Source of the DNA: Patescibacteria group bacterium
GTDB lineage: Bacteria; Patescibacteriota; Minisyncoccia; Phycocordibacterales; EsbW-18
Length of the DNA stretch: 64,000 nt
Reading direction: 5' to 3'
Assembly: GCA_038063815.1 (NCBI GenBank)
Contig: JBBTUJ010000002.1
Location: 70,511-134,510 of the forward strand
Position numbers and translations under genes: made by a program
The notes under the pieces: generated by a model
What the model was told of the DNA's origin: nothing
What the model saw: the letters and a program-made list of their open reading frames with translations, nothing else
Database searches by the model: none
Part shown: positions 7,477 through 47,896 of the stretch, one piece after another
Layout: every line of letters begins with the position of its first letter
How positions within the stretch are numbered: position 1 is the stretch's first letter

Positions 7477-7505
7477 TTGACGTACAAGCAGTAGTGTTAT
7501 ATTGT
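7477..7505 (+). promoter_or_regulatory. sigma70-like promoter for the small GC-rich gene
   Basis: TTGACG, a 15-17 bp spacer and TATATTGT, followed by SD AGGAGG 5 nt before the ATG at 7531. Confidence 0.4.
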
Positions 7506-7530
7506 CGATACAGACAACCCAGGAGGAACC

Positions 7531-19906: not shown

Positions 19907-20515
19907 TTAGGTGTTAGGCATCGCGGATTCTTCTTTGGAGGTCGGACCTCCAAATTTTGGAGGTCCGACCTCCAAATCGCTGCTTGCTCCCTCTCGCGTT
20001 GCAAACGCCGCAATTGCTTCGCGTGCGGTCTCAAAATCAGGAAGTTCGTTAAGTGACGTGATTCCGAGGAAACGGAGAAGTTCGAGTGTTGGTTTGTAGA
20101 GGAAACTTCTTTGGTCGCTCGGGTTGTCAACACGCTCAACAAGCCCGCGCACTAAAAGTTGTCGGAGAGAGAACGTCGAATTGACACCGCGGATATAATC
20201 AACACGTGCTCGGGTGACAGGTCCGTAGTAGAGGATGATCGCAAGCGTTTCAAGGCCCGCTTTTCCGAGGTCTCGCTCGAGTTCCTCTTTTCGGAGAAGC
20301 GCGATCTTTTCTTCCGCCTCAGCCGCTGTTGCGAGCATGACCTCATCCGCTGTCTCCACAAGCCGAATTCCCCTTTCGGTAAGCGTTGTCTTAAGTTCGG
20401 TCAGTGCTTCCCGTGTCTTTTCTTCCGATAGAGACAAGGCCTTCGCGATATCTTTTACTCGCATCGGTTCCCCTTTATAAAAAAGCAGCGCTTCAATGTG
20501 TGCAGAAAGGTTCAT
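19907..20515 (-). CDS. scpB: segregation and condensation protein B
   Basis: 202 aa. N-terminus EALLFYKGEPMRVKDIAKAL is typical of ScpB winged helices. Confidence 0.85.
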   Translation of the reverse strand: MNLSAHIEALLFYKGEPMRVKDIAKALSLSEEKTREALTELKTTLTERGIRLVETADEVMLATAAEAEEKIALLRKEELERDLGKAGLETLAIILYYGPVTRARVDYIRGVNSTFSLRQLLVRGLVERVDNPSDQRSFLYKPTLELLRFLGITSLNELPDFETAREAIAAFATREGASSDLEVGPPKFGGPTSKEESAMPNT

Positions 20516-20529
20516 GGTGTAGGGGTTTC

Positions 20530-21417
20530 TTATTGTACCAAAAGTGCTCGGAGTGCGGGCTCAAGTCTGACCGCGTGACCAGAGCCGTATACAACAAAAA
20601 GTTTATCGTGGTTTTTCAATCCCTCGGCAATCCTTTCTAATCCATACTCATCTCTGAACCGGCTCGAATTTCTAGAAACTTGGTTGATAATTGTCTGGAC
20701 CGCCTCCTTTCGTGGATTTGGAACTACTTGGTCGCGATATTTTGTGGCGTCAAGGTCCAAATCCGCAAAAAGTTCTTGTTTCACCCGTTCTAAATCCTCC
20801 AATTTCCAACGACTATTTTTTTGAAATCGGCTGAAGTACGGCTCAAGGTACTTTTTACAACCCTCCAGAGTTTTTTCTTTTGCATAGTGTCGCTGGTATT
20901 GAGCAATGATTGAATACATGTGTTCTTTAAAAATATCCCCCCCAGAAAATCCCTTACCAAGAAGATGCTGAATTACTTCAAACTGTTTTGGTTCTGGAGA
21001 TTCAAATTCGACACCTGCATCAATAGCGAGTTTAAGTGTATACAGGTTTTCACCGTCTTTTATGGTTTCTTCGAGGGTCGTATCTTTACGTTTTTCAACA
21101 GCTAATTCTTTGTGATCATTGATTTCTTGCATTCCTTCTACATAGACGATTTCTGGCTGTAATTCTTTGAATCTCGTTTGAATCTCTTCAAACATGGGGT
21201 CCTGAGGATTATTGGTGTGGTGACTACCAAAATAAACCAACCTTTTGTTTCCACTTGTTAATTCAAAAATATAATTCTTGTCTTTTTCACCGTGATTAAA
21301 AGGGTGATCAAGATACTCTTGACCATCAAGAATCATCTTTTTGAGTGGCTCTAGGTCTACGGTATTCGGAGATGATTTTTCAACAGGATTCATGGATTTA
21401 CGAATACTTCGGGACAC
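20530..21417 (-). CDS. hypothetical protein inserted between scpB and scpA (weak TraB/GumN-like resemblance)
   Basis: 295 aa. GC is lower than in the flanking genes. C-terminal VVYGSGHAVRLEP. No confident family. Confidence 0.4.
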   Translation of the reverse strand: MSRSIRKSMNPVEKSSPNTVDLEPLKKMILDGQEYLDHPFNHGEKDKNYIFELTSGNKRLVYFGSHHTNNPQDPMFEEIQTRFKELQPEIVYVEGMQEINDHKELAVEKRKDTTLEETIKDGENLYTLKLAIDAGVEFESPEPKQFEVIQHLLGKGFSGGDIFKEHMYSIIAQYQRHYAKEKTLEGCKKYLEPYFSRFQKNSRWKLEDLERVKQELFADLDLDATKYRDQVVPNPRKEAVQTIINQVSRNSSRFRDEYGLERIAEGLKNHDKLFVVYGSGHAVRLEPALRALLVQ

Positions 21418-22147
21418 TTACCTGATCTGTCTCCATCTCGATATCAGAAAAGCGTTCGTGTTGTCGCACGGAAAGTATACCTTGCTTCACCAACTCGAGC
21501 ATTGCGAGGAAGGAGACAATCGTGTTCACTTTTTTCTCCTGCGGCGTGTGTTTTCCTTCGTGATGCGATTTTGCAAAATCACTGAAGCGCATCTTAAGAG
21601 CATTTGTGATTCGCTCCGAGAGTCGTCCCATCATTTCCTCCAAACTCATGACGGTCTCAACAACAGCGCGTTTCAAGGTCTCTGGTTTTGGAAGCGCCGC
21701 GATGATGCCTCGGACACTCTCGAGAAGCGCGTTTGTCGTTATCGTTTTATGCGGAGCGAAGACGATTTCACGTTCAACGGGTGACTTGAGAGGTGCATGA
21801 AGAGCGTTTCCCGTGAGTGCTTTCTGGAGATGTTTTGAAAGACGTTGCGCTTCTTTGTAGAGCGTCAAACGCATCTCAAGATCCCTCACATCTGCTTCCT
21901 CGTCGGACGTTAGGGCAAATTCAGGAAGGAGCGAGCGTGACTTGATAAGAACCAAAGTCGAGGCAACCAAAAGAAAGTGTGCGACGTCCTTGCTCGGGAA
22001 TTCAGAGAGGTTTTTGAGATATGCGAGATAATCGTCCGCAACAGCAGCGAGAGAAATGTCGTTGATGAGAAGTGTTCTCTTTTCGATAAGAGAGAGCAAC
22101 AAATCAAGCGGCCCTTCGAATACAGATGTCTTAACAGCAAACGACAT
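21398..22147 (-). CDS. scpA: segregation and condensation protein A
   Basis: 249 aa. N-terminus FEGPLDLLLSLIEKRTLLINDISLAAV is typical of ScpA. Confidence 0.85.
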   Translation of the reverse strand: MSFAVKTSVFEGPLDLLLSLIEKRTLLINDISLAAVADDYLAYLKNLSEFPSKDVAHFLLVASTLVLIKSRSLLPEFALTSDEEADVRDLEMRLTLYKEAQRLSKHLQKALTGNALHAPLKSPVEREIVFAPHKTITTNALLESVRGIIAALPKPETLKRAVVETVMSLEEMMGRLSERITNALKMRFSDFAKSHHEGKHTPQEKKVNTIVSFLAMLELVKQGILSVRQHERFSDIEMETDQVSVPKYS

Positions 22148-24437: not shown

Positions 24438-25391
24438 CTACTGCACACTCAAAAGTCCAACCTTCTCTCGCACCTCCTTCATTTTTGTATCTGCTTTCTC
24501 GCGCATTTTGGCACCGCTCTCGGCAAGTATCGCGCGGACACCGTTCATGTCTTGTGCAAATTCAGCACGGCGCTCGCGCAAGGGTTTTATAAACGCATCA
24601 AGATCCTCGATGAGTGCTTCTTTGAGTGCTTTGTAACTGCCTTTATTTGCCTCGTAGAGTTCTTTGAGTTCGTTTTCAGGGCGGAAGAACTTGTGTATTT
24701 CGTAGACGTTCTTTGGCAAATCACCGGAAGAGTCGGTAACGATGGACATCACGGCCTTTGTGATCTCATCGCGCGACGCAAACAAGGGAATCGTGTTGCC
24801 ATAACTCTTGCTCATCTTTTGTCCGTCGGTTCCGGGAACAACAGCGGCATTCGGAAGGATATATGGTTCGGGAATTGCAAATGTATCTCCAAATGTACTG
24901 TTGAACTTTTGTGCGATATCGCGCGCGTACTCAACGTGTTGCTTCTGGTCTTGTCCCACAGGGACAATATTTGCTCCGGGAAGAAGGATATCAGCCGCCA
25001 TGAGAACGGGATAATCAAAAAGTCCTATCGTTGCCTCAATTCCCTTTGCAATTTTATCCTTGTATGACGTTGCGCGTTCCATGTAGGGAACTGTAACGAG
25101 TGTGTTGAAGATCCATGTGAGTTCTGTAACCTGCGGAACATCGGATTGGATGAAAAGGGTTGTTTTCTTCGGATCAAGTCCGACGGCGAGATAATCAAGA
25201 ACAACATCGAGTGTGTTTTGTGCGAGAACATCTTTATCCTGAACTGTCGTCATCGCGTGATAGTTCGCAACAAAGATGTACGATTCGTACTCTTCTTGCA
25301 AGTCAACGAACTGCTTCATCGCGCCAAGATAGTTCCCGACGTGGAGTGCGCCTGAAGGTTGGATGCCTGAAACAAGGATTTTCTTTGCCAT
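24438..25391 (-). CDS. trpS: tryptophan--tRNA ligase
   Basis: 317 aa. GIQPSGALHVGNYLG (HIGH) and GQKMSKSYGN (KMSKS). Confidence 0.9.
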   Translation of the reverse strand: MAKKILVSGIQPSGALHVGNYLGAMKQFVDLQEEYESYIFVANYHAMTTVQDKDVLAQNTLDVVLDYLAVGLDPKKTTLFIQSDVPQVTELTWIFNTLVTVPYMERATSYKDKIAKGIEATIGLFDYPVLMAADILLPGANIVPVGQDQKQHVEYARDIAQKFNSTFGDTFAIPEPYILPNAAVVPGTDGQKMSKSYGNTIPLFASRDEITKAVMSIVTDSSGDLPKNVYEIHKFFRPENELKELYEANKGSYKALKEALIEDLDAFIKPLRERRAEFAQDMNGVRAILAESGAKMREKADTKMKEVREKVGLLSVQ

Positions 25392-25395
25392 ATGA

Positions 25396-26706
25396 TTAAA
25401 GGTCTTTCGTTATCCGTGCGAGAAGATTTGAAATGGGAACACGTTCTTGCTTCATCGTATCTCTATCGCGAACGGTTACTGCGTCGTCGGTGAGCGTCTC
25501 AAAATCAACAGTGATGCAATACGGCGTTCCGATTTCATCTTGCCGTCGATATCTCTTTCCAATATTCCCGTTGTCATCCCACATGACCTGTGGAACAGAT
25601 AATTTCAAGTTGCCGTAGATCTCTCGTGCTTTTGCAACAAGTTCAGGTTTATTTTTGAGAAGCGGAAATACGGCCGCTTTCACGGGAGCAATGCGAGGGT
25701 TGAACTTAAGAACCGCACGGGCGTCATCCCCTTCTCCTTCTTCGTGATATGCAGAAAGAAGAATAGCGAGAAGTGTGCGTTCGACACCGAATGATGGCTC
25801 AATCACATGCGGCACGAATTTTTCTTTCGTTTCCTCATCCATGAATGATAAATCAACAGAGGAACCTTTTGCGTGTGCGGAGAGATCAAAGTCGGTCCGG
25901 TATGCGAGTCCGTAGAGCTCTTTCTGGCCGAACGGATAGATGAATTCAAAATCGATGGTGCGTTTGCTGTAGTGTGCGCGTTCCCCATCGGGGATCTCGT
26001 TCTCTTTGACGCGCGAGGTATCAATCCCAACGGCTTCAATCCATCCATGCATGAGCGTTCGCCAGTCCTCGAATGTGCTCTCCCAGTATTTCGGATTGAT
26101 AAAGTATTCAATCTCCATCTGTTCGAATTCACGAGCTCGGAAAACAAAATCGCGCGGTGCAATCTCGTTTCTGAATGCTTTTCCTATTTGCGCGAGACCA
26201 AATGGCAACTTTGGGTGGAACGAATCAACGATGTTCTTGAAGTTCACAAACATTCCTCCTGCTGTTTCAGGACGGAGATATGTGACAGACGCTTCGTCCT
26301 CGGTTGCGCCGATATGCGTCTTGAACATCATGTTGAATTGTCGGGCTGCGCCCAAAGAGCCGCCGCAATCGGGGCATTTTGTCTTATCGTCGAGGTGGTC
26401 TTCGCGGAACCGTCGTTTACATTTGGCACACTCGACCAAGGGGTCAGAAAAGCCCGCAACGTGACCGCTTGATTCCCAAACCTTTGGTTGCATCAAAATC
26501 GCGGCATCAACCCCGTAGATATCATCTCGTGAGTCAACAAATATCTTCCACCACATGTTCGTGATATTCCGCTTGAGGGCGATTCCAAGAGGACCGTAAT
26601 CCCACGTTCCTGCCATTCCGCCATAAATTTCTGAGCCGGGGTAGATGAATCCGCGGCGTTTGCAGAGCGATATGATGTCGTCCATGGATACGGATTTTTC
26701 TGTCAT
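25396..26706 (-). CDS. glyQS: glycine--tRNA ligase (alpha2 dimeric type)
   Basis: 436 aa. N-terminal LCKRRGFIYPGSEIYGG...WDYGPLG, class II motif 2 (KAFRNEIAPRDFVFRAREFEQME) and a Zn-knuckle insertion CAKCK...CPDCGG. Confidence 0.8.
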   Translation of the reverse strand: MTEKSVSMDDIISLCKRRGFIYPGSEIYGGMAGTWDYGPLGIALKRNITNMWWKIFVDSRDDIYGVDAAILMQPKVWESSGHVAGFSDPLVECAKCKRRFREDHLDDKTKCPDCGGSLGAARQFNMMFKTHIGATEDEASVTYLRPETAGGMFVNFKNIVDSFHPKLPFGLAQIGKAFRNEIAPRDFVFRAREFEQMEIEYFINPKYWESTFEDWRTLMHGWIEAVGIDTSRVKENEIPDGERAHYSKRTIDFEFIYPFGQKELYGLAYRTDFDLSAHAKGSSVDLSFMDEETKEKFVPHVIEPSFGVERTLLAILLSAYHEEGEGDDARAVLKFNPRIAPVKAAVFPLLKNKPELVAKAREIYGNLKLSVPQVMWDDNGNIGKRYRRQDEIGTPYCITVDFETLTDDAVTVRDRDTMKQERVPISNLLARITKDL

Positions 26707-27052
26707 GTAAAAACTATATCACGAGAATAGGTATATTTTTAGAATAAAAAAAGAGCGGCCGTCCCATGGAGAGACGACACGCTTGGAGAGGTCGGGAAGA
26801 CGGCATGAACCGTACTACGCCCCCGACTAAAGGAACTGCTGGAGGGAGACCACACCATTGGTCTCAGGACTCATGCTCGCCGGAACGAGCACTTTCTGGG
26901 AGGTTTGGTCTCCCGGAAAACATACGCGTGATCTTTGACAGAGCATCACACGATGGCACGTCATCCGCAAATGCGGCCTCCCCCCGACTTGCTACCCCTT
27001 ACTACCCCCGCCCGCTCTGAAACCACCCTATCACGTTTATTAAAATATGCAA

Positions 27053-28141
27053 CTACACCCCTTCTTCTTTGAGTTTTTCGATGAGGTCTTTTGCTTGTCT
27101 TGAAAGTCGTTTTGGCATGTCAACCTCAACGATGACACGGAGCGCTCCTCTTCTGCCGTCGCGACCGGGGACACCCTTTCCGCGAATTGATATCTCGTGT
27201 CCGTGCGAGATACCGGGTTCGATGGGAACGCTCACTGGTCCGTCGAGTGATTCGATCGTGTACGTTCCTCCAAGAAGCGCGTCAGAGAGTTTGATGTGAA
27301 GAAGTGTCACGAGGTCATTCCCATCTTTTTGTATCGAAGAGTGCGCTTTGACGTGGACCTTTACGTAGAGGTCTCCCGCCGTACCGTTTTGTATTGCCTC
27401 TCCAGCTCCTGTGAGACGAATCATCTCACCGTCTTCCATTCCCGGAGGAATGATAATGCGTGCCTCTCCTTCTTTGCGCGAAATCCCCGCACCCCCACAC
27501 TCACTGCATGGTTTTGAGGGGAGTGTTCCTTTTCCGTGACACGCCCCACACGTGGTTACTGTCGCGAATGTACCCAACATCGATGTTCGTGTCTCACGGA
27601 TCTTTCCTTTTCCGTTACACGTCTTGCATGTCTCTTGTGTCGAGCCGGGCTCACCTCCACTTCCTTTGCATTTCTCACAGACAGCCGCTTTTCGTACGAG
27701 AACATTTCGCGTTGTGCCAAAAATCGCTTCTTTGAAATCAATCTCAACGTCAATCGAGATATCACGGCCGCGTCGCGAACGCGCGCGACCTCCGCCACCA
27801 AACATCTCGCCGAAGATGTCCCCCAAGTCGAATTCAAATGCTCCGCCGTTCTGTGCGCCGGAGAATTGTGAGAAGTCGAAGTTAAACCCTTCAAATCCCG
27901 AGAATCCTTGTGGTCCTCCACCTCCTCCCCCTGCGAATGTTTTGCCGTATGTATCGTATTGCGCGCGTTTTGCATCATCCGAAAGGACGCCGTATGCCTC
28001 GTTTATCTCCTTGAATTTCGCCTCATCCCCTCCTTTTTTGTCAGGGTGATACTTATGCGCCAGTGTCCGGAACGCCTTCTTGATGTCGTCTTTTGTTGCG
28101 CCCTTGTTAACGCCGAGTGTTGAGTAGTAATCCTTCGCCAT
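27053..28141 (-). CDS. dnaJ: chaperone DnaJ
   Basis: 362 aa. J-domain with HPD, a G/F-rich region and four CxxCxGxG zinc-finger repeats. Confidence 0.9.
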   Translation of the reverse strand: MAKDYYSTLGVNKGATKDDIKKAFRTLAHKYHPDKKGGDEAKFKEINEAYGVLSDDAKRAQYDTYGKTFAGGGGGGPQGFSGFEGFNFDFSQFSGAQNGGAFEFDLGDIFGEMFGGGGRARSRRGRDISIDVEIDFKEAIFGTTRNVLVRKAAVCEKCKGSGGEPGSTQETCKTCNGKGKIRETRTSMLGTFATVTTCGACHGKGTLPSKPCSECGGAGISRKEGEARIIIPPGMEDGEMIRLTGAGEAIQNGTAGDLYVKVHVKAHSSIQKDGNDLVTLLHIKLSDALLGGTYTIESLDGPVSVPIEPGISHGHEISIRGKGVPGRDGRRGALRVIVEVDMPKRLSRQAKDLIEKLKEEGV

Positions 28142-28207
28142 ATTTGACTTTTGTCACTTATTATACTATTGTCCCGACAGACGCACAACCACTCAAGGAG
28201 AAAAGCC

Positions 28208-28813
28208 GTGAGCAATCTCGAAAGAGTACATGTCGCCATGTCGAGCCAAATGAGGGGTGATGACAATGAAATCACTTTCCGCGGCTTGAGCGACGAGGAA
28301 GTCGAGCGATTGCAAGGGATGTTGCAAGGACAGTGGTGGGTTTCCGGCAATCACGCCAACGGGCGTCTCCGGTTCAGCGGTGGATGGTTGCCTGCCCCCG
28401 ATCCGGTCACGGATGAGGCGATGGAACCTTTCTGGCGTCGATACGAGCCCCAACATCCGCCAACGCCCCACCAGCAGGTCATGCTGACCTCCAAGACCAG
28501 CTGGAAGCACTCCTCGCCCCACTTCTCCATCCAGAATCTCTGCGGGTACAACTACAGCCGCGAGAACTACGCCCGCAACGCGTGCCTACTGGAGACCTAC
28601 GGTTTCGTGTGTCTCCGGTCCCGCCGCGAGGAGGATGGGAAGTACTGGGAAATCTGGTTTCTTTCCGGTCTCTGGGCGGCGCGGGGTGAACTCCAGAAGA
28701 ACCTGCGGGAGCGCGACGACGTGGAGGGAGCGATCTCTTTCCTCTGCCGGACCGTCCAGTTCGGTACGCTCGATGTGGCAGTGCAACGTGCTGCCATGCC
28801 GTCTCCCGACTAG
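28208..28813 (+). CDS. GC-rich hypothetical protein (about 201 aa from GTG 28208; ATG alternative at 28229)
   Basis: SD AAGGAG lies 6 nt upstream of GTG. Longest frame in a high-GC block. Trp-rich, no TM, no recognisable family. Followed by a GC-clamp terminator. Confidence 0.5.
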   Translation: MSNLERVHVAMSSQMRGDDNEITFRGLSDEEVERLQGMLQGQWWVSGNHANGRLRFSGGWLPAPDPVTDEAMEPFWRRYEPQHPPTPHQQVMLTSKTSWKHSSPHFSIQNLCGYNYSRENYARNACLLETYGFVCLRSRREEDGKYWEIWFLSGLWAARGELQKNLRERDDVEGAISFLCRTVQFGTLDVAVQRAAMPSPD

Positions 28814-28831
28814 GGTTTTCTTCAAGGCCGT

Positions 28832-28866
28832 GGGGCCCGCGTTCGCGCGGGCTCCGTTTTTTATAT
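28832..28866 (+). terminator. rho-independent terminator
   Basis: GCCCGCG-ttcg-CGCGGGC hairpin, then TCCGTTTTTT. Confidence 0.6.
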
Positions 28867-28920
28867 CAATTTTTTCAGCAGGTTTTCAACTTTTAGCCAC
28901 ATTTTATTACCTATGAAGTA

Positions 28921-28941
28921 TTCTGGGCTTCTGCAGAAACT
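28921..28941. repeat. 21-bp direct repeat TTCTGGGCTTCTGCAGAAACT (copy 1), containing the palindrome TTCTGCAGAA
   Basis: Identical 21-mer recurs at 29246-29266. Palindromic cores also occur at 29203-29212 (TTCTGCAGAA) and, as a half-site, at 31114-31126. Confidence 0.7.
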
Positions 28942-28952
28942 CAGAATAGTTT

Positions 28953-29222
28953 ATGAAGAATACAAAAGAACTCGAAAAAATATTTAAGGCGTGTGCCAAT
29001 TATCATCGCATCGATATTTTGCTCTTACTTGAACGGCGGCCAGATATATCCGTATTTGATATTGCTGACGAAGTGAAAGGAGATTTCAGAACAGTATCAG
29101 AACATCTACGCAAACTGACACTTGGTGGTCTGATTGTTAAACGTAGAAAAGGGCTTGCGGTCGGGCATTCGATCACTGAGCGCGGTGAAAGGGTTCTTGG
29201 TTTCTGCAGAACCTTAGAGTAG
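28953..29222 (+). CDS. winged-helix (ArsR/HTH-like) transcriptional regulator
   Basis: 89 aa. YHRIDILLLLERRPDISVFDIADEV...VSEHLRKLTLGGLIVKRRKG is an HTH-plus-wing pattern. Flanked by palindromic repeats. Confidence 0.6.
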   Translation: MKNTKELEKIFKACANYHRIDILLLLERRPDISVFDIADEVKGDFRTVSEHLRKLTLGGLIVKRRKGLAVGHSITERGERVLGFCRTLE

Positions 29223-29245
29223 TTAATTTGATGAGGGTTGAGGTT

Positions 29246-29266
29246 TCTGGGCTTCTGCAGAAACTT
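29246..29266. repeat. 21-bp direct repeat TTCTGGGCTTCTGCAGAAACT (copy 2)
   Basis: Exact copy of 28921-28941, downstream of the HTH gene. Confidence 0.7.
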
Positions 29267-29360
29267 GGAATAGAGCGGAGGGTTGTTGAAATAGAAAAAG
29301 TTGTTGGAAGGAGGTTTGTTGGAGTAGAAAATTAGTAGTTGAGGTTGGAGGTCGGGTGAG

Positions 29361-29389
29361 TTGACATGTGTGTTTTACAAAGGTATAAT
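29361..29389 (+). promoter_or_regulatory. consensus sigma70 promoter (TTGACA-17-TATAAT)
   Basis: TTGACA at 29361-29366, exact 17-bp spacer, TATAAT at 29384-29389. Preceded by a GTTGTTGGA-type repeat tract and followed by SD GAGGAGG. Confidence 0.55.
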
Positions 29390-29457
29390 GCAAGAGGATA
29401 CAGAAGCGTCAGAAAACGGGATTCCACCCGCTCAAAACCATCCGAGGAGGAAAGCTT

Positions 29458-30066
29458 ATGGATGTCCAGAAAGCCGAGCAGATGCTCTGGCAGAGGGCTG
29501 ACGAGCTTTCTGCCGAACGAGATGCGCTCTCCAAGAAGAGCGACGAGCTCTTCCAGATCTGCGGACGAGTCCGCAAGGGAGAGCTCAAGGGTGCCGACCT
29601 TGTGAAGTTGGAGGGGCGTTACTGGGAAATCCAGCGACGTCTCGAGGCGATTACTGCCGAAGAGGCAGAGATTGTCCTCGATCTCGAGATGATTTCGCGA
29701 GGTGTGATTCCGGAGAAGTTCGCGGAGTCAGCCCAGTCCGCCCTCTCGAAGCGCCGTCAGGCGATTGCCTCCGAGGAGGCGCGAATGTTGCCTCGCGAGG
29801 ACGAGGACCAGTTCTGGGAGGCGTATGTTCCCGGATACCAAGGGAAGCGTCCCAAGAGCGCTCGTCATCAAGCGGCATCCAATGGGCGCTTTCTCACAAC
29901 GGGTCGTCACGCGACCCATGTGACGGGGCAACTTTTGCCAGAGATCGCCCCCGATGCTTTCTTCGAGGCGACGGCTGACACTCACGGTGGTAAGGTCCGA
30001 GGCGGTTCAAAACCCGTCAATGGGACCTACATCTCCAAGGGAGGGAAAGCAATTCGGAAGTTCTAA
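29458..30066 (+). CDS. GC-rich hypothetical protein with N-terminal coiled-coil (202 aa)
   Basis: Perfect promoter and an SD with AAGCTT directly before the ATG. Tandem GC hairpins and a T8 terminator follow. No family recognised. Confidence 0.55.
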   Translation: MDVQKAEQMLWQRADELSAERDALSKKSDELFQICGRVRKGELKGADLVKLEGRYWEIQRRLEAITAEEAEIVLDLEMISRGVIPEKFAESAQSALSKRRQAIASEEARMLPREDEDQFWEAYVPGYQGKRPKSARHQAASNGRFLTTGRHATHVTGQLLPEIAPDAFFEATADTHGGKVRGGSKPVNGTYISKGGKAIRKF

Positions 30067-30070
30067 ACAC

Positions 30071-30121
30071 GCCGCGCAACGCGCGGGCCCGCCCAGACCA
30101 TGGGGCGGGTTCGTTTTTTTT
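30071..30121 (+). terminator. rho-independent terminator (tandem GC hairpins plus T-run)
   Basis: GCCGCGC-aac-GCGCGGG and CCCGCCC-agaccat-GGGGCGGG, followed by TTCGTTTTTTTT. Confidence 0.65.
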
Positions 30122-30141
30122 ATATAGTTTTTAAGAGAAAG

Positions 30142-31002
30142 TTACGTTTTAACTCTCATCACGAAAACCTGGGCGTTCTCAAGCAACAGTCTCACTTTGT
30201 GATCATCAATGTTTAATTTTTTTGGAGATACCAAGTTATTTCTTTCTTCCATAAAACTGTGACGCTCGATGCTAAATCCTAGATCACTAAAAAAACGAAC
30301 GGCATGCTCTTCGTTGTCAAAAAGATTGTTATCTATGTTTATTCCTGTTATCTCGTTTATCTTATCTCGTAAACCGTGTGCCACAACCTCACTGTCCTGC
30401 ACCATTCTTTTTTTTGAGATATCCGGAGTGATCCAGACACCGCCGAACTTTTCGAGAATCTTATGAATGTTTTTTGCAACCACAGCCTTTTGTTCGAAAG
30501 AGAGATATCTCAATAAGCCCTCATGTATAACAGCAATAGGCTTTTTTTCATCAAAATGCTTGCACGCCAAGAGGAGTTCTTCGTAGACTAAAGCATCTGC
30601 TGGTTCAAAGTATATATTTGCAGGGAGTTCTTTTTTGAATTTCGATAGTATTTGTTTCTTCTCTTCGATTAATTTTGAAAAGTCCGTTTCCACATATGTT
30701 ACCCGGGAATCCTCTGAAAGTTCCAAACCCCGCGGAGAAAGTCCAGCGGCAATCTCGAGAATCTGCGTTATGCCACTTTCCTTCAGAAGACGGTTGGCTA
30801 GTTTGTACCTTGCCTCAAATTGGGGGCTCAGCCGAGTATCCTTTACCACTTCTGGAATCGTTTCGCCTGCCTCAATACGAATTTTTTCCATCTCGTCAAA
30901 TATTTCCTTAGAGAAAGGAATATCAGAGAATGTTCGGCAGTGTGCCACAAGCCACGCTGTCGGTATTACTTTTTCGTTCCCCACTTTCGAATGCTTTTTC
31001 AT
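30142..31002 (-). CDS. class I SAM-dependent methyltransferase, LCM/TcmP-like O-methyltransferase family
   Basis: 286 aa. QILEIAAGLSPRGLEL and YVETDF resemble the LCM family GAGLDTR and E-D-P motifs. Lies 36 bp downstream of res on the same strand. Confidence 0.5.
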   Translation of the reverse strand: MKKHSKVGNEKVIPTAWLVAHCRTFSDIPFSKEIFDEMEKIRIEAGETIPEVVKDTRLSPQFEARYKLANRLLKESGITQILEIAAGLSPRGLELSEDSRVTYVETDFSKLIEEKKQILSKFKKELPANIYFEPADALVYEELLLACKHFDEKKPIAVIHEGLLRYLSFEQKAVVAKNIHKILEKFGGVWITPDISKKRMVQDSEVVAHGLRDKINEITGINIDNNLFDNEEHAVRFFSDLGFSIERHSFMEERNNLVSPKKLNIDDHKVRLLLENAQVFVMRVKT

Positions 31003-31038
31003 TTTTTAAAAGGGCCTGACCCTATCTTTTCTAATATT

Positions 31039-33570
31039 CTATTTTTCAAGAAGGTCTTCGAGAGAGCTTCTGAAATGCTTTTGAAATAACCTACCATCGA
31101 GAAGATATTCGCAAAATTCAGAATAGTTTGAGGGACTTAAGAAATGAAAGAAGTAGTTCTGATTAACTTTTGCTTTCTTTAATTCCTCATTTAGGGTTTT
31201 AAAATGTTCCTTTGCCCAACGGTATTTGGCCTTATTTTCATCTGACTCATCACCGTCCATTTTGATTTCCACAACAACAATATTGTTGGCAAGCTTTAGA
31301 AAAAAATCCGGATTAAAGTTAGCCTGCGTCTGATGCTCACCTTTGCGCCACGAATACTCAATGCTATAAAAATTTTGATCCCTTGACTTTATCCAAGCGT
31401 CAATCTTTTCACTAACTTTTGAACTAACAATAGCTTGAACAAACTTTCTTTCGGGCTCATGTTTAGTAAAAACAATATTTATAGGTGTTTTAAAACAATA
31501 GTAGTTTATTTCCTTACTAGCCCTTTTAGGTAAACTTTCATCGTTAATAATGTCCGAAAGAAGATCATATTGTTCTTTTGAACACTCACTTTCATACTCA
31601 TCAGAATAAAAAACAGTTGCGTCATGTCTAAGGGCGCCAATAGCAATACTTTCCTGTTCTAAATTTCTCGTACTTATTTTTTTTGGCTTTTCGACTTTTC
31701 TTTTAAAAATAATTGTAGATGCTCGAGTTCTAAAAAGTGTTTGAAAGGTTCCAAAAATCTTTTTTGTATTAATTTCAGTTAAAACACCACTTTTAATGCC
31801 AACTACCTGCATAGATTTTTTCACATGCTCTCGGATCTCATTTTCGGGTGGTAAATCTTCTTTCGTATAAATTCCCTTCGGGAAACGTATTTTTGCTTCA
31901 AAGTCTCGCGTTTTGAAAGTATCGATAATTTTTGTAACAACTTCATCTATTGTATAAGTTTCTTTTTGGACAGTTGTTGTTTTACGTATTATTCCACCTT
32001 TTAAATCTTCGTACTCAGTTTCTTTTTCATCATGTTCAACCTGGCTTACCAATTTTGTGTATCCTTTCGAATAATCAAATTCCTCAGTATCTTTTTTTGC
32101 TTCCACCTCTTTTTCTTCTTTTGTAAAATCTATGTTATAAATGTCAAAATGATAATTTTCGCGACCGCCAAATATCAACGGAGCACTTACTAGACGAACC
32201 TCTACTTCTAAAATTTCATCAATAAGACCACGGATATTTCGACTCCATGCGTCATGATTAAAAACACGAACCTTTGGCTGTGGTGATTTATACGCTTCAG
32301 GCACACGCAATCCGCGACCAAGCACTTGAGCTATGAGAAGTTTTGAATTGAACGCCCGGTCTTCCCATGGCACAATTTGAAAAACATTTTTTACATCCCA
32401 GCCCTCGGTTAGCATAGAAACTGAAATAATCCATTCAACTGGGTTATTTTTTTCGTCTACACTTTTTAACTGCAAAATGTTTTTCTTGTGATCTTTGTGG
32501 GAAGTAACAATCAAAACTTTTTTCTCAACGGCGATGCGTGAGATTTTTTCGCGTTTTTGCAAAAAATCAACCAAATCTTCTCGAAGCGTTTTTGCTCTTG
32601 AAATATCTTTTGTAACAAGCATTGTAAGTGGTTTAATGAGTCCATACTTTTTTACAAATTCGTCATGGTTATCATAAATCTTTTGAAATTTCTCATTTGT
32701 ATCAATGCTTTCGTCTTTTGCCACATAATCAACAGATTTTACTACATGTTCATCAACCGCCTGTCGGATTGAGTAACGATAAATGACGTCATTAAAATAC
32801 TCATCGTCAATGTACGCTGTTCCGGTAAAGCCGAGAATATATTTGAATCCGTAATCAGAATTAAGTAAAAACGCTTTCCATTTTTTTATATCCGTATCCA
32901 GTGAAGCGTTGTAGGCATGATGGACTTCATCGTTCAAAACCAAGACACGCGCCCCGCTGCCTTTCAAGCTATCTTGTATTGATGATCCAGTACGTTCGTA
33001 AACGGCATGGATATTTTCCACCGCAATGTCACCATTTTTTATAGTGCTATTTGCGTCAATAATGCGAGGATTTTTATACACCGCATCGTTGGGTAGGGTG
33101 GTTTTAATTCGATCATCGCCAGAAAGATTTTGAAACTTCTCTTTTAATCCTGCCTCAATAGTGAGCGATGGGCAAAGTACAAGAACCCTATCAACCAATC
33201 CAAGTCCTAAAGCAATTTGCGCAATTCCGTACATTACATAACTTTTTCCTGTTCCTGTTGCCAAATCAATAACACCAGATAATTTGTGAGGTAGCTGTAA
33301 GTTCTTTTCGTATTCGCGCGTATCTTTGTATCGATCTCGTAATTCAACATTCGTTCGCCAATTTTCGCTGATCAAATCTTCAATTGAATCGTATTCGCCA
33401 GAAGCAATGTAGGTTATTGCCGTGCGGATCGCGTCTTTTTGGTACTCTCTATCTGGACAAAGCACATCAATGAAATCTATCCATTGCTTGAGTTTCAACT
33501 TCGTGGGATCAAATTTTTCTTTAACCTCTAGAACCAAATCTTGTGTTTTATAAATCTTGATGTCTGTCAT
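31039..33570 (-). CDS. res: Type III restriction enzyme, Res subunit (SF2 helicase-nuclease)
   Basis: 843 aa. Walker A LATGTGKSYVM and a DEAH-type box VLNDEVHHA. Directly downstream of mod with an ATGA start/stop overlap. Confidence 0.85.
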   Translation of the reverse strand: MTDIKIYKTQDLVLEVKEKFDPTKLKLKQWIDFIDVLCPDREYQKDAIRTAITYIASGEYDSIEDLISENWRTNVELRDRYKDTREYEKNLQLPHKLSGVIDLATGTGKSYVMYGIAQIALGLGLVDRVLVLCPSLTIEAGLKEKFQNLSGDDRIKTTLPNDAVYKNPRIIDANSTIKNGDIAVENIHAVYERTGSSIQDSLKGSGARVLVLNDEVHHAYNASLDTDIKKWKAFLLNSDYGFKYILGFTGTAYIDDEYFNDVIYRYSIRQAVDEHVVKSVDYVAKDESIDTNEKFQKIYDNHDEFVKKYGLIKPLTMLVTKDISRAKTLREDLVDFLQKREKISRIAVEKKVLIVTSHKDHKKNILQLKSVDEKNNPVEWIISVSMLTEGWDVKNVFQIVPWEDRAFNSKLLIAQVLGRGLRVPEAYKSPQPKVRVFNHDAWSRNIRGLIDEILEVEVRLVSAPLIFGGRENYHFDIYNIDFTKEEKEVEAKKDTEEFDYSKGYTKLVSQVEHDEKETEYEDLKGGIIRKTTTVQKETYTIDEVVTKIIDTFKTRDFEAKIRFPKGIYTKEDLPPENEIREHVKKSMQVVGIKSGVLTEINTKKIFGTFQTLFRTRASTIIFKRKVEKPKKISTRNLEQESIAIGALRHDATVFYSDEYESECSKEQYDLLSDIINDESLPKRASKEINYYCFKTPINIVFTKHEPERKFVQAIVSSKVSEKIDAWIKSRDQNFYSIEYSWRKGEHQTQANFNPDFFLKLANNIVVVEIKMDGDESDENKAKYRWAKEHFKTLNEELKKAKVNQNYFFHFLSPSNYSEFCEYLLDGRLFQKHFRSSLEDLLEK

Positions 33571-33572
33571 AA

Positions 33573-35537
33573 CTACTTCAAATTAAATATTTCTCGGAAT
33601 TCGTTACCGTAAACATCAACATAAATTGTCATCATATACTTTCCACATTTTTTGCTCTCAAAATCTAAAGTGATTTCTTTGCAGTTCTCAAGTTCTTTTT
33701 GAATCTGTTTCTCATTGCCTTCCTCATTATCTTTTTTACCTATCAAATCTTGTGCAAAGAAGTATTCACTCATCAAAAATTGATCCCTGTTATATTTCAA
33801 ATCAACAAGTACCATCGCCAAGCTCTCAAAGTTTTTTAACTTCTCTCCGGTCTCGTCTTGAGCGTAAGCAGATTCAAATTTCTTAATTTTGAGCACAATC
33901 TTGTTTTTTGTCAGTTTTACTTCCGATTTTACTTCCGGTTGACGCACAAAGTGAAAGCCAATAGCATCATCAAGATCATTAACCTGACCCTTACTTTGAG
34001 GTTGACGTAGTTTTTTAAACTGCACCTTATGTAACTCTTTAATAATTTGATAAGGCACTTTCAAAAAGTAATAGCGCGTGCCGTCAATTTCATGATAGTC
34101 ACTAATAAAATTAACATTGTTTGCCGGGGCAATAATATACATACGCCCATTGATTTTTGCGCCAAGATTTTTGTGTAATTCGTTTAGATATTTTTCATCA
34201 ACGCTTGCTTCTTGTACTTCCCAATACGGAAAAAGTTTTACATAAAATTCTCGACGTTTTCCGTCTAGCGATACGCCACCGATGGACTTTACTTTAGTTT
34301 CCGCTACTTCAAAAAGTCGCTTCACAAACTCTATATACTCATCTTTTTTAAGAGAAAAAACTTTTTCTAAATCATAAAGACCAGAAGTAACAATTCCAAA
34401 AGATTTAGCAACTTTTGCATAATCTTTTTTTGGATTGTCCAAGCTCTTACTCTCTTGGATTTCCAAAAGTCGTTTCTGTATTGTGTAAATTGCTAATTTG
34501 CCGATATCACACCCAATCCATCGACGGCCAAGCTTTTCGGCAACAGCAAGGGTTGTTCCACTTCCAGCAAAAACATCCATAACGATATCATCTGGACTGG
34601 AAGCTGTTAAAATAACCCGACGCAATAACTCCTCTGGTTTCTGGGTCGGATATCCAATGTATTCTCGGCTTGCTGATTTCGTCGTAGAGCTTTGACCAAT
34701 TTCCCAAACATCATCAGCTTTTTTCTCTGTAAAATCCTCGTAAATTAACTTCCCTCCCTTATCTCGTGCAGATATCAATTTCCCCAATTCCTTAGACCAA
34801 ATCCGTTTATCACGCCGAACAGTCTTATTGAGCGGGATCATCACCTTGTTTGCCGTGTAAATATCAGATTTTGAGTACCAAAAAATATTGTTGTGGTTTA
34901 CTGCGAAACCATCTACGTTTCCCTGAAAGTTGTCAGAGTAGTGCCAGATAATTTCATTTACAAAGTTATTTTCACCAAACACCTCATCCATAACAACTTT
35001 TAGATATTGTGCCTTCTTCCAATCAAGGTGAACAAAAATACTTCCATCATCCGCTAAAATTTCGCGCATCAATACCAAACGGCGGCGCAAAAATTCAACA
35101 AATTCTGCACCTTTGGCTTTGTCAGAGTACGCTTTTTGTCCCTTGTTGCCGGAAAAGTCCTGTGCTGTGGCAAAGGGTGGGTCAATATAAATTAGTTTTA
35201 CTTTACCCTTAACCTTTCCTTTGATGAGGGGGTCTTCATCTTTATAAAAAGTTTTGAGGATTTGAAGATTATCACCGAACACTAAAAGATTATGCCAATT
35301 TTTTGCAGCAAGAGGGTATTTTGTGCCGTTAAAAATTTTCTCAGTTTGAAGCGGGACAGCTTTTGCTTCCTCGTTGTCTGCCAAAATATCCTCTTTGCGT
35401 GCTTTTCCAGAATAAACAAGCTCGTACTCTTTTTGTTTGGTCGGAAAAATTGCGTACTTATATTCAGCGGGAATTTCTTTACCCGTCTTTAAGCACTCAA
35501 TTAGAAATTCTATGTCGTATTTGTTTAAATCGCTCAT
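33573..35537 (-). CDS. mod: Type III R-M N6-adenine DNA methyltransferase, Mod subunit
   Basis: 654 aa. LIYIDPPFATAQDF (motif IV DPPF) and VMDVFAGSGTTLAVA (motif I). Confidence 0.85.
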   Translation of the reverse strand: MSDLNKYDIEFLIECLKTGKEIPAEYKYAIFPTKQKEYELVYSGKARKEDILADNEEAKAVPLQTEKIFNGTKYPLAAKNWHNLLVFGDNLQILKTFYKDEDPLIKGKVKGKVKLIYIDPPFATAQDFSGNKGQKAYSDKAKGAEFVEFLRRRLVLMREILADDGSIFVHLDWKKAQYLKVVMDEVFGENNFVNEIIWHYSDNFQGNVDGFAVNHNNIFWYSKSDIYTANKVMIPLNKTVRRDKRIWSKELGKLISARDKGGKLIYEDFTEKKADDVWEIGQSSTTKSASREYIGYPTQKPEELLRRVILTASSPDDIVMDVFAGSGTTLAVAEKLGRRWIGCDIGKLAIYTIQKRLLEIQESKSLDNPKKDYAKVAKSFGIVTSGLYDLEKVFSLKKDEYIEFVKRLFEVAETKVKSIGGVSLDGKRREFYVKLFPYWEVQEASVDEKYLNELHKNLGAKINGRMYIIAPANNVNFISDYHEIDGTRYYFLKVPYQIIKELHKVQFKKLRQPQSKGQVNDLDDAIGFHFVRQPEVKSEVKLTKNKIVLKIKKFESAYAQDETGEKLKNFESLAMVLVDLKYNRDQFLMSEYFFAQDLIGKKDNEEGNEKQIQKELENCKEITLDFESKKCGKYMMTIYVDVYGNEFREIFNLK

Positions 35538-35598
35538 GATCTTCTTTAACTTTTGACTACATCATATACCAAAAACCCGGCTTTTCGCCGGGTTCTGA

Positions 35599-37506
35599 CT
35601 ATCCCTTGGGTTGCTCGGTTTCTGAGGGCTTTTGGTCACCCTCTGTCCCCTGTTGTGGGTTGTCTGTTGTTTGTTGTGGGTTACTTTGTGAGCCGTCCGA
35701 GGCCGAGCTAGACATTGCAGGACCGATTTTTTGCATTTCGGCGATGAGTTCTTCGTTTGCTTTTTTGACGGTGTCTGTGTCACCAGTGTCTTTTACTTTC
35801 TTTAATTCATCAATTTTACCTTGAACCGCGGTCTTGATATCAGCAGGAACTTTGTCACCGGCATCTGTGAGCGCTTTTTCGGCAATAGCGAGCGTGTGTT
35901 CTGCGGTGTTCCGTACATCAACGAGATCTTTCTTTTTCTGGTCTTCGTCAGCGTGTTTCTCCGCTTCGTCTTTCATCCGTTTGATGTCTGCTTCCGAGAG
36001 TGCGCTTGAGCCCTCGATGCGGATGGATTGTTCCTTGCCGGACGTCTTATCTTTTGCTTTCACTGTCAAAATACCGTTTGCATCGAGGTCGAATGTGACT
36101 TCAACCTGCGGCGCGCCTCGTGGTGCGGGTGGAATACCTTCGAGAACGAAGCGTCCGAGCGTTCTGTTGTCAGCCGCCATGGGACGCTCACCTTGCACGA
36201 CATGGATTTCAACAGATGTTTGGTTGTCGGATGCTGTTGAGAATGTTTGCGACTTACTTGCAGGGATTGTCGTGTTCTTCTCGATAAGTTTTGTTGCAAC
36301 TCCTCCCAATGTCTCAATGCCGAGCGAGAGTGGCGTCACATCAAGCAAAAGAACATCACGAACGTCTCCTTGCAAGATTCCTGCTTGAATTGCGGCACCA
36401 AGTGCAACAACTTCGTCAGGGTTGATAGAGCGATTTGGTTCTTTGCCGCCGAAGAGTTCTTTGACTGCCGCCTGGATAGCGGGCATGCGTGTCTGTCCTC
36501 CGACGAGAACAATCTCATCGATATCACTCATTGCGAACGATGAATCCTTGATGACGTCTTTTGTGATAGAAATAGCGCGGTCAATGTATTCCTTTGCAAG
36601 ACCTTCAAGAGTCGAGCGCGAGATCTTCATGACCAAGTGACGCGGTCCCGATGAGTCCGATGTGATGAATGGGAGGTTGAGTTCTGTCTCGGGAACGTTC
36701 GAGAGTTCGTGCTTTGCCTTTTCTGCCGCTTCATCGAGGCGCTGGAGAGCGAGGGGGTCCTTTGAGATATCAATGCCTGATTCTTTCCTGAATTCAGCGA
36801 GAATCCATCCGACGATTTTTTGGTCGATGTCGCGTCCACCGAGGTGGCTGTCTCCACCCGTTGCCTTCACTTCAACAACGTCTTCGGAAACCTCAAGGAC
36901 GGAGATGTCGAATGTTCCTCCTCCGAAGTCGAATACAACAATCTGCTCGTTCTTTCGCTTGTTGAATCCATATGCGAGCGCTGCCGCTGTCGGTTCGTTG
37001 ATGATACGCTTTACGTCGAGGCCTGCGATTTTGCCTGCGTCTTTCGTTGCCTTTCTCTGCGAATCATTGAAATATGCGGGAACGGTAATGACTGCTTCGG
37101 TGATTTTCTCGCCCAGTTTTGCTTCAGCATCTGCCTTGAGTTTTGAGAGAATCATCGCTGAGATCTCTTCCGGGCGGTGATCTGTGTTATTGAGTTTGAC
37201 CGCCGCACCACCATCTCCTCCCGCTACGATTTCAAATGGCACGGCCTTCTTTTCTTTTTGAACTGTTTCTTCATCAAATCGGTGTCCCATCAAGCGTTTG
37301 ATGCCGTAGATGGTGTTCTTGGGGTTGGTGACGGCCTGACGGCGTGCAATAAGCCCCACAAGGCGGTCTCCTGTCTTTGAGATAGCAACAACAGAGGGTG
37401 TTGTACGAGCGCCATCGGCATTCTCGATGATTGTGGGTTCACCTCCTTGTATTACAGCCATTGCGCTGTTTGTCGTTCCGAGGTCGATTCCAAGTACTTT
37501 GCTCAT
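35599..37506 (-). CDS. dnaK: chaperone DnaK (Hsp70)
   Basis: 635 aa. [21 protein letters not shown] and the rest of the Hsp70 signature set. Confidence 0.95.
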
Positions 37507-37557: not shown

Positions 37558-38127
37558 CTATTCCCCTTTGAATTCTCCGACAACAACGCGGGCGGGACGT
37601 AGCAAAAGGTCCTTCATACGATACCCCTTCTGAAGAACCGCGACAATTGTGCCATCGTCATTTTTGTTTTCAACTGGTACAAGTGAGACCGATTCGTGTT
37701 CGTGCGGAGAAAAATGTTCTCCAACGGGATTCACAACTTCAACACCATTTTTCTCAAGAGTTTTTAAAAGATCAGCGTAGATGTGCATGATGCCGTCGCT
37801 CCAATTCTTCGGTGCGCTCTCCCATGCCGCCTTATCTTCAAACGCTCTCTCGAACGTATCGAGTGCAGTGATGACATCGAGGAGGACCTTTGATGCGCCT
37901 TTCGTAAGAGACCTTTCTTCATCTGCAAGAGCGTTACGCTTCAAGTTAACAAAGTCCGCTTTTGTACGTTGCCATCCTTCGAGATATTCTTGTCGGTCTT
38001 TGAGGGCGACCGCGAGTTCCTCGCGAAGTTTCTTCTCGCTCTTCCCTTTTATGCGAGCATCACCTTCGTTTTCTTCTGAAACGAAAGAAATGTCGTCTTC
38101 TGGGGGATTGTTGGGTTGTTTTGTCAT
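37558..38127 (-). CDS. grpE: nucleotide exchange factor GrpE
   Basis: 189 aa. Position upstream of dnaK, coiled-coil N-terminus, C-terminal GrpE beta domain. Confidence 0.85.
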   Translation of the reverse strand: MTKQPNNPPEDDISFVSEENEGDARIKGKSEKKLREELAVALKDRQEYLEGWQRTKADFVNLKRNALADEERSLTKGASKVLLDVITALDTFERAFEDKAAWESAPKNWSDGIMHIYADLLKTLEKNGVEVVNPVGEHFSPHEHESVSLVPVENKNDDGTIVAVLQKGYRMKDLLLRPARVVVGEFKGE

Positions 38128-47152: not shown

Positions 47153-47871
47153 AACTCATTATATGAAGTAATATTAGCGAGGCATTCTTCTTTGCTTACA
47201 GGTGACTCAGAAGGAGAACCAAAAAAAGATTTACCTGTTAAGTCCCACGACGAATTGATTTGGTTGCAGATTGAAATATCTTTCGTACGCTCTGCAACAA
47301 TATTTAAACATCTCGCTTTATAAACATAGCGCTGGTCATAATTCCAACCCTTATGCCAATCTCTCGCTTCTGTCGATATTTGATTGCAGGTTGAGGTATC
47401 TTGGATATTTTCCTGCCGACTTACTTTATTGTAATAACAAAAAGCCCTGTTTTGACTTCTTTCTCCATCAAATACAAGCCAACAGAGACCATTATTTTGT
47501 ACGTTTGTCGCAAGCATCCAATAGACAAACAGAAGCAGGGCGAGAGGCGCTACAATATTAAGGAATTTATCCCCAGGTCTTTGTCGAGATTCAAGCGCGC
47601 GACAGAGTAATGCAAAAAAACAAGGAATGAGAATGAATAAAATAATTCCTCCGAGGAGAGTGGGGAAATTTCCCATCCCATAGTTCACTAAATTAAGGCC
47701 AAAAACTGCTTTAAAAAAAAGGAGGGGCTCACTGATTGTGTGTGCAAACATTAGTCCGACAAATGGAATAACCATTACTATCGCGAGAAAGATATTGATC
47801 ATCAAACCAATCACCGCTCCTCGTATCCAAGGGGACTGAATGGTACCTATTTTCTTAAAGAAAGAATCCAT
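47149..47871 (-). CDS. hypothetical polytopic membrane protein with Cys-rich C-terminal domain
   Basis: 240 aa with four predicted TM helices. Overlaps the alaS start by 4 nt. Confidence 0.4.
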   Translation of the reverse strand: MDSFFKKIGTIQSPWIRGAVIGLMINIFLAIVMVIPFVGLMFAHTISEPLLFFKAVFGLNLVNYGMGNFPTLLGGIILFILIPCFFALLCRALESRQRPGDKFLNIVAPLALLLFVYWMLATNVQNNGLCWLVFDGERSQNRAFCYYNKVSRQENIQDTSTCNQISTEARDWHKGWNYDQRYVYKARCLNIVAERTKDISICNQINSSWDLTGKSFFGSPSESPVSKEECLANITSYNEL

Positions 47872-47896
47872 ATTAGAAACTATAGTGTATCAGCGT

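Follow-up and report, generated by a model that had tools for sequence, protein, structure and literature searches.

How six genes, a restriction-modification (R-M) system among them, came to lie between the chaperone genes dnaK and dnaJ is the question raised by contig JBBTUJ010000002.1 of a Patescibacteria group bacterium (GenBank assembly GCA_038063815.1). The window analysed here is a stretch of 64,000 nucleotides of this contig (positions 70,511 to 134,510), and within it the distance from the dnaJ start to the dnaK stop (28142-35598) is exactly 7457 bp. The interval carries mod, res and a methyltransferase gene of the LCM/PF04072 family on the minus strand, and orfA, an arsR-like gene and orfC on the plus strand. 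The initial annotation had described it as a horizontally acquired defence/accessory island. Acquisition is well in line with the relatives and the composition, however, the interval does not behave as one element, as at least four to five of its modules occur separately elsewhere. On balance, we consider it likely that the 7.4 kb are a horizontally acquired mosaic of defence and accessory genes rather than a single mobile element.

Gene order in relatives, composition and boundaries

A search with DnaK, using one genome per GTDB species, gave 44 loci, nearly all of them from Patescibacteria, in which homologues of 15 proteins of the window were located; loci labelled with L and a number are the related genome or metagenome loci compared with the window. 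The string rpoA-rplQ-rplM-rpsI-grpE-dnaK-dnaJ was found to be widely conserved among the 44 loci, and the gap between dnaK and dnaJ is 24-550 bp in 31 of the 36 that have both genes. They are also adjacent in the closest relatives, L003 (163-bp gap) and L005, where DnaK identity is 79-82 %. Homologues of mod, res, the methyltransferase, orfA, arsR and orfC were found in none of the 44 loci (0/44), so that the gene order of the relatives favours an insertion. As judged from these comparisons, dnaK-dnaJ adjacency is the ancestral state and the 7.4-kb cargo is specific to the lineage.

Other genes, amounting to 2.0-3.4 kb, stand between dnaK and dnaJ in five of these loci (L006:8052-10046, L007:11911-15024, L015:11791-15230, L022:11869-14915 and L032:6721-8856), and L004 has the same cargo as L006. 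Such cargo is of approximately native GC content and unrelated to the island of the window; examples include a gene pair encoding 360 and 103 residues, tyrS with a rhodanese and a hydrolase, secreted proteins and a GIY-YIG protein. The 7.4-kb cargo of the window is the largest seen at this junction among the loci compared. Since five relatives carry different cargo there, the dnaK-dnaJ junction is evidently permissive in this clade and recurrently occupied. As a separate observation, the 550-bp dnaK-dnaJ spacer of L031 includes an open reading frame (ORF) for a HicB-like protein of 72 residues.

Windowed GC content, GC content at third codon positions (GC3) and tetranucleotide deviation all flag the interval as foreign. 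The mean GC of the window is 46.9 % and that of the flanking host genes about 47-52 % (dnaK, dnaJ, grpE and glyQS: GC 0.47-0.52, GC3 0.46-0.52). Within the island, mod (GC 0.37, GC3 0.35), res (0.36, 0.30), the PF04072 methyltransferase gene (0.41, 0.42) and arsR (0.42, 0.37) stand beside orfA (0.60, 0.75) and orfC (0.59, 0.67), so that neighbouring genes fall into at least three compositional classes. Measured against the window mean, tetranucleotide distance reaches 0.035-0.043 over 30-35.5 kb, approximately twice the median of 0.0187 (median absolute deviation 0.0018), and is second highest, at 0.027, in the plus-strand cassette. The dominant anomaly is the AT-rich mod-res block; the earlier description of the plus-strand cassette as GC-rich fits orfA and orfC but not arsR, and passes over this main signal. 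Two more dips in GC, to approximately 40 %, were seen at 20500-21500 and 47000-48000; these are far milder than that of the R-M block and the tetranucleotide distance is not raised there.

Transcription signals of the host are found at both ends of the insert. The intrinsic terminator of grpE-dnaK (35567-35596, minus strand), recognised by RNA folding, begins 3 nt past the dnaK stop and consists of a G+C-rich stem of 10 bp followed by a U run (-17.7 kcal/mol, z = -4.3), and the ATG of mod lies 34 nt beyond it. At the other end, the dnaJ promoter read from the sequence (TTGTGC-17-TATAAT, 28160-28188, minus strand) stands back to back with a candidate orfA promoter (28144-28172, plus strand), and the ribosome-binding site of orfA begins only 7 nt past the dnaJ promoter. 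The same layout of terminator followed by promoter, with a TATAAT box in the matching position, is seen in the 163-bp spacer of L003. With dnaK terminator and dnaJ promoter intact, as in L003, the insert separates two transcription units and does not cut one operon, the foreign DNA extending from about 28189 to 35571. The initial annotation, in stating that the island splits the chaperone operon, was therefore right about its position between dnaK and dnaJ but overstated the consequence, given the strong terminator of dnaK and the promoter that dnaJ has of its own. Chaperone expression would presumably be unharmed. A possible duplication of target or promoter sequence, suggested by a 25-nt stretch in which the leader of mod resembles the -10 box and leader of dnaJ, was rejected as too weak (score 18, reached by 3 % of shuffles).

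The Type III restriction-modification cassette

The mod gene (33573-35537, minus strand) encodes a protein of 654 residues in which motif IV, DPPF (IYIDPPFAT, at about residue 117), is followed by a variable target-recognition region and then by motif I, FAGSG (VFAGSGTT, at about residue 320). Type III Mods of the beta class have their motifs in this order, and by these features the protein is an N6-adenine DNA methyltransferase. It matches the Pfam family N6_N4_Mtase (1.5e-49, 169 bits) and the MTase_III models of PADLOC, and its sequence matches in the PDB include the Helicobacter pylori Mod (6k0w) and EcoP15I Mod (4zcf). The res product (31039-33570, minus strand, 843 residues) shows the motifs GTGKS and DEVHH of superfamily 2 (SF2) helicases and matches Pfam ResIII (1.3e-18, 67.8 bits against a cut-off of 22.5), SWI2_SNF2 and PADLOC REase_III. 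Towards its C-terminus, a nuclease-like PD...EIK motif (NPDFF...VVVEIK) was read by eye in a part of the protein covered by no match to a domain model or solved structure.

The two genes are on the same strand with mod upstream, mod ending at 33573 and res starting at 33570, a gap of 2 nt, and mod followed by res is also the order in 72 related loci and on a plasmid of Mucilaginibacter. Domain content, motifs and gene order all agree with the earlier assignment to Type III R-M, and the pair is by these features a complete cassette of that type. R-M activity in the host is predicted from the sequence: Mod would place its methyl group on a single strand of a short, asymmetric recognition sequence, and the Mod-Res complex would use ATP to cut incoming DNA that is unmethylated.

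Comparison with the characterised systems points in the same direction. As in EcoP15I, EcoP1I and the H. pylori Mod family, mod precedes res almost without a spacer, Mod is a beta-class N6-adenine enzyme with a central variable region, and Res has the motifs of an SF2 helicase; a candidate PD-(D/E)XK-like motif near the C-terminus of Res would fit as well. In sequence, however, the cassette is distant from the characterised Type III enzymes, the match between Mod and that of EcoP15I covering no more than about 80 residues. Phase variation, for which simple-sequence repeats are responsible in many Type III mod genes, is not suggested here, as no such repeats were found in mod.

Searches with Res gave 80 loci from a metagenome scan and one from a scan of viral contigs. 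These 81 contigs carry relatives of mod-res with identities of 55-84 % for Res and 45-91 % for Mod, the Mod of L055 being the one with 91 %, and DNA similarity to the window is confined to the two ORFs (35530 to about 31040), stopping at their ends. Within this block, a gap in similarity at 34590-34950 across the 81 loci corresponds to the differing target-recognition region of Mod. The GC content of the cassettes is 0.26-0.46 and that of their flanks 0.22-0.55, the cassette usually being AT-richer than its surroundings. A RadC-like gene lies directly upstream of mod in 20 of the 81 loci, large serine recombinases are found in nine and an additional gene stands between mod and res in several. 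In L077, inverted repeats of approximately 350 bp (154-495 and 7270-7602; 91-99 % identity) flank the order RadC-mod-X-res, where X is such an additional gene, and inverted repeats are also seen in L071, L066 and L067. The arms of L071 and L066 are 100 % identical and placed at contig ends, and these may be assembly hairpins; those of L077 are diverged and mostly internal, with one pair reaching the contig end, and are probably real. More distant full-length relatives (37-49 % identity) reside on plasmids of Mucilaginibacter, Curtobacterium and Limosilactobacillus, that is, in Bacteroidota, Actinomycetota and Bacillota, and on the Mucilaginibacter plasmid the order is recombinase-mod-res. Taken across these contigs and plasmids, the cassette is a widely disseminated and mobile one.

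Accessory and flanking genes

Downstream of res, the gene at 30142-31002 (minus strand, 286 residues) had been noted simply as a methyltransferase, which could have made it a third component of the R-M system. It proved to encode a class I S-adenosylmethionine-dependent enzyme of the LCM/PF04072 family (Pfam LCM, 5.9e-13, 49.6 bits against a gathering threshold of 22.3; TIGR00027, 48.1, below its cut-off of 93.55) and not a DNA methyltransferase. A role as a third R-M component was ruled out, as such a gene lies beside res in none of the 81 loci and is solitary in other genomes. Its 530 homologues, the best with 68 % identity, come from bacteria of the candidate phyla radiation (CPR) and from DPANN archaea, and the closest of them stand alone in unrelated contexts, for example inside a pentose-phosphate gene cluster. 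From these contexts, the gene is best described as an independent accessory gene.

The two small orphan genes are placed on either side of arsR. The orfA product (28208-28813, plus strand) has 201 residues when counted from a GTG preceded by AAGGAG, and an intrinsic terminator with a 12-pair stem, nine of the pairs G-C, and a T run follows the gene (28830-28866, plus strand). It has two ferredoxin-like alpha/beta domains and no match in Pfam, PHROG or PADLOC, and belongs to a family of proteins of about 200 residues with 83 matches, mostly on contigs labelled as Patescibacteria; those members that carry an organism name are all from Patescibacteria. The homologues are single genes in varied chromosomal contexts. 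As to composition, orfA and its closest homologues (in L053, L137 and L140) are 7-13 GC points above their host contigs, with GC3 up to 0.78, and more distant members of the family follow the GC content of their hosts.

orfC (29458-30066, plus strand, 202 residues) is likewise an orphan family, for which a word search gave eight homologues and a profile search of 1.8 billion proteins gave 113 representatives. Its product has a coiled-coil hairpin at the N-terminus and, at the C-terminus, an invariant basic motif, TTGR...ATADTHGGKVRGGSK; the AlphaFold2 model is confident for residues 1-80 only and the conserved C-terminal region is modelled poorly. Neither Pfam, PHROG nor PADLOC gave a match, and no viral contigs carrying the family were found. 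PADLOC detected nothing in the PF04072 methyltransferase either. The sigma-70 consensus promoter of orfC (29361-29389, plus strand; TTGACA-17-TATAAT, 12 of 12 matches) lies 69 nt upstream of the gene and is the only perfect such site in 26.6-38.3 kb, and a second intrinsic terminator (30083-30124, plus strand), again with a 12-pair stem including nine G-C pairs and a T run, stands 3' of orfC. That orfA and orfC are paralogues was considered and ruled out, BLASTP giving E = 0.04 over 25 residues and the two profiles no cross-matches; nor was any co-occurrence of the two found elsewhere.

The arsR-like gene (28953-29222, plus strand) encodes a winged-helix protein of 89 residues that passes the Pfam cut-offs for HTH_24 (25.9 bits against 21.9) and HTH_5 (23.1 bits against 22) and scores 49.6 bits for NCBIfam HTH_metalloreg, under the cut-off of 55. 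A palindrome of approximately 28 bp, ATTC-N5-TTCTGCAGAA-N5-GAAT, was detected by searches for its repeats and core three times around this gene, namely directly upstream of the arsR ATG (O1, 28916-28954), over the arsR 3' end (O2, 29189-29227) and again 51 bp on (O3, 29240-29278), all three being neutral as to strand. Its 10-bp core has exactly three copies in the 64 kb, all of them at the arsR locus. In L099, an arsR of 40 % identity is flanked by the same palindrome at the same two positions, and because of this conservation there is good evidence that the palindrome is the ArsR operator. ArsR probably binds all three copies and controls its own gene. The right half-site TTGGAATAGA is repeated at 29286 and 29319, towards the orfC promoter, and from this reiteration we infer that ArsR perhaps influences orfC too. 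The protein is similar to autoregulated repressors of the ArsR/SmtB type in its small winged helix and in the palindromes around its own gene, kept in a homologous module; it is unlike them in that the 89 residues include no canonical CXC motif for metal binding, in its score below the NCBIfam subfamily cut-off, and in that one palindrome lies over the 3' end of the gene, both in the window and in L099.

Two further observations concern this module. Between the last operator and the orfC promoter is a G/T-rich spacer in which a 22-nt imperfect direct repeat, GGAGG(G/T)TTGTTG(A/G)A(A/G)TAGAAAA, occurs twice with a spacing of 33 bp (29277-29331). In L099 (630-1221), the 0.5-kb arsR module has tRNA-Pro (630-701) on one side and, on the other, 22 bp that repeat the tRNA 3' end exactly (1200-1221), and RadC-mod-res of the same R-M family follows directly; the arrangement resembles an attachment site (att) duplication left by an integrated element that was tiny or has decayed. 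Nothing useful came of a search for arsR among viral contigs and phage records.

The genes around the island are those expected of the host. Upstream of dnaK (35599-37506, minus strand, 635 residues; NCBIfam PRK00290, 925 bits, and Pfam HSP70; GC 0.50) are grpE (37558-38127, minus strand) and, on the same strand upstream of it, rpoA, rplQ, rplM and rpsI, as identified from the ORF listing and scans with Pfam and NCBIfam. Downstream are dnaJ (27053-28141, 362 residues; Pfam DnaJ, DnaJ_CXXCXGXG and DnaJ_C; GC 0.52), glyQS (25396-26706) and a class Ib aminoacyl-tRNA synthetase gene (24438-25391), all on the minus strand. Gene order and identities are as described earlier, the gene called trpS being a class Ib synthetase of TrpS size. 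No CIRCE heat-shock operator is present in the window. The spacer between dnaJ and glyQS (26707-27052, minus strand; 346 nt, 52 % GC), with a terminator-like hairpin at its end (26758-26778), folds somewhat better than shuffled sequences (z = -2.9) and may represent a small RNA or a leader; nothing similar was seen in the fetched loci, and Rfam gave no match either to the spacer or over 24-40 kb as a whole. Further away, in a cluster of tRNA-Ala, tRNA-Arg and tRNA-Pro genes (3.3-4.7 kb), ARAGORN reports a tRNA-like gene (3861-3937, plus strand) with an undetermined two-base anticodon call, 'tc'.

Origin of the island and its significance

In this Paceibacteria-like genome from groundwater, the foreign DNA would have entered the short stretch that separates the terminator of grpE-dnaK from the dnaJ promoter. 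Five modules may be distinguished: mod-res, the solitary PF04072 methyltransferase gene, orfC with its perfect promoter, the 0.5-kb arsR module and orfA. Elsewhere, each of the accessory genes (the methyltransferase, orfA, orfC and arsR) is found without the remaining three. As the most parsimonious reading, we envisage that the modules arrived stepwise, by illegitimate or homology-independent recombination that would leave no signature at a permissive boundary of terminator and promoter.

An alternative is that a single integrative element, built elsewhere, delivered all six genes at once and subsequently lost its integrase and att sites. The six genes are indeed contiguous and absent from all relatives, R-M cassettes related to this one adjoin serine recombinases or a duplicated tRNA end, and in L099 the arsR module adjoins the same R-M family. 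Three composition classes (GC3 of 0.30-0.42, 0.37 and 0.67-0.75) and the separate occurrence of every module nevertheless make such a composite less likely; apart from arsR in one locus, no other island gene accompanies mod-res in the 81 loci, orfA and orfC are never together elsewhere, and the intergenic spaces of 36-235 bp are too short to hide remnants of a recombinase. Delivery in one piece is, in our estimate, quite improbable. It is also unlikely that the AT-rich mod-res pair, with or without the methyltransferase, is the only recently foreign part, and that orfA, arsR and orfC are older accessory genes of Patescibacteria relocated by rearrangement. Members of the orfA family are single chromosomal genes in many Patescibacteria contigs, the high GC content of orfA recurs in its closest homologues and so is no proof of recency, and cargo of native GC sits at the same junction in five relatives. 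Against such a relocation, none of the relatives has orfA, arsR or orfC within 10 kb of dnaK, GC3 values of 0.67-0.75 are beyond every host gene measured (maximum 0.62, in rplM), and in L099 the arsR module lies between the two copies of a duplicated tRNA 3' end.

Two other explanations can be largely set aside. If the arrangement were ancestral, the adjacency of dnaK and dnaJ would stem from repeated deletion in the relatives; something does stand between the two genes in six of about 37 relatives, but this cargo is unrelated to the island and, except in L004 and L006, to that of other relatives, 31 genomes across the clade have the genes adjacent, and the composition of the island is strongly atypical. 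Ancestry is thus close to refuted. Misassembly of a metagenome, joining contigs of different organisms, might be suspected from the abrupt changes in GC near 30.1 kb and 35.5 kb. These changes fall at gene boundaries, however, and the flanking terminator and promoter are intact. The exact DnaK protein is found on five contigs and the exact DnaJ likewise on five; independent short assemblies agree in gene order, L002 spanning dnaK-mod-res and L136 spanning mod to dnaJ, and the same junctions are present in separate ENA/Logan assemblies of different runs (ERZ1292619, ERR3858121 and ERR3858120), of which ERZ1292619 derives from groundwater of the Hainich aquifer (well H41, 0.1-um filter fraction). 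Because the junctions recur in independent assemblies, chimerism is very unlikely.

Several observations weigh against stepwise acquisition of a mosaic or limit its detail. The nearest relatives have only about 80 % DnaK identity; an empty site in a near-identical genome was not found, and the island is present in each of the five assemblies that encode an identical DnaK or DnaJ, without presence/absence polymorphism. Integrase remnants or att duplications at 28142 and 35598, which had been suggested as a check, were not found: there is no recombinase among the ORFs of at least 40 residues in 28.0-31.1 kb or among the six scanned genes, no tRNA gene within 23 kb of the island (the nearest lies at position 4.6 kb of the window), and the longest direct repeat shared by the boundaries is 7 nt, a length reached or exceeded in 180 of 500 shuffles. 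Furthermore, the three closest homologues of orfA are likewise 7 to 10 GC points above their hosts, which distant ones are not; the high GC could be a property of the gene instead of a mark of recent transfer, so that GC taken alone says little about whether orfA was transferred recently. Lastly, no solved structure matched Res in sequence.

Insertion of R-M units of all types between conserved genes was described by Furuta, Abe and Kobayashi 2010 (PMC2853133), who also found that such units are in many cases accompanied by integrases, bordered by direct or inverted repeats, or integrated at tRNA genes. Relatives of the present cassette are similar to these mobile forms, as seen from the inverted repeats of L077, the Mucilaginibacter recombinase and the duplicated tRNA-Pro end nearby in L099, whereas the copy in the window has no repeats, long target duplication or recombinase. 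As in defence islands at core-gene hotspots, foreign cargo including a defence system lies between housekeeping genes and varies among relatives; the island of the window is unlike these in being small, in having one recognisable defence system and in that no integrase is tied to the hotspot. Among the traits of integrase-mediated islands, atypical composition and absence from relatives are present, and an integrase and an att or tRNA target were not found.

A more far-reaching proposal combines two claims: that the spacer is a clade-wide, integrase-free cargo hotspot in Paceibacteria-like CPR bacteria, and that orfA (with two ferredoxin/Cas2-like domains), the arsR module with its conserved operator and orfC (with its coiled coil and basic TTGR...ATADTHGGKV tail, behind a perfect promoter) make up a new module, linked to defence or toxin-like, that travels together with Type III R-M cassettes. 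We regard this combination as speculative and doubtful. Within the island, some potential for novelty is seen in the orphan genes and the arsR module only.

CPR bacteria, or Patescibacteria, have tiny genomes in which CRISPR-Cas is rare. Burstein et al. 2016 (PMC4742961) report that the defences found instead in CPR lineages are mostly R-M and abortive infection. The locus offers a clean example, with known boundaries, of the gain of an R-M system by such a tiny genome between a terminator and a promoter. Its insertion point lies inside a strongly conserved string of ribosomal-protein and chaperone genes, at a junction that tolerates varied cargo in relatives. It is an ordinary kind of horizontally acquired patchwork and no new biological system, its value is descriptive and current views are left unchallenged; to the known neighbours of defence genes it adds two small orphan families and a putative conserved ArsR operator.

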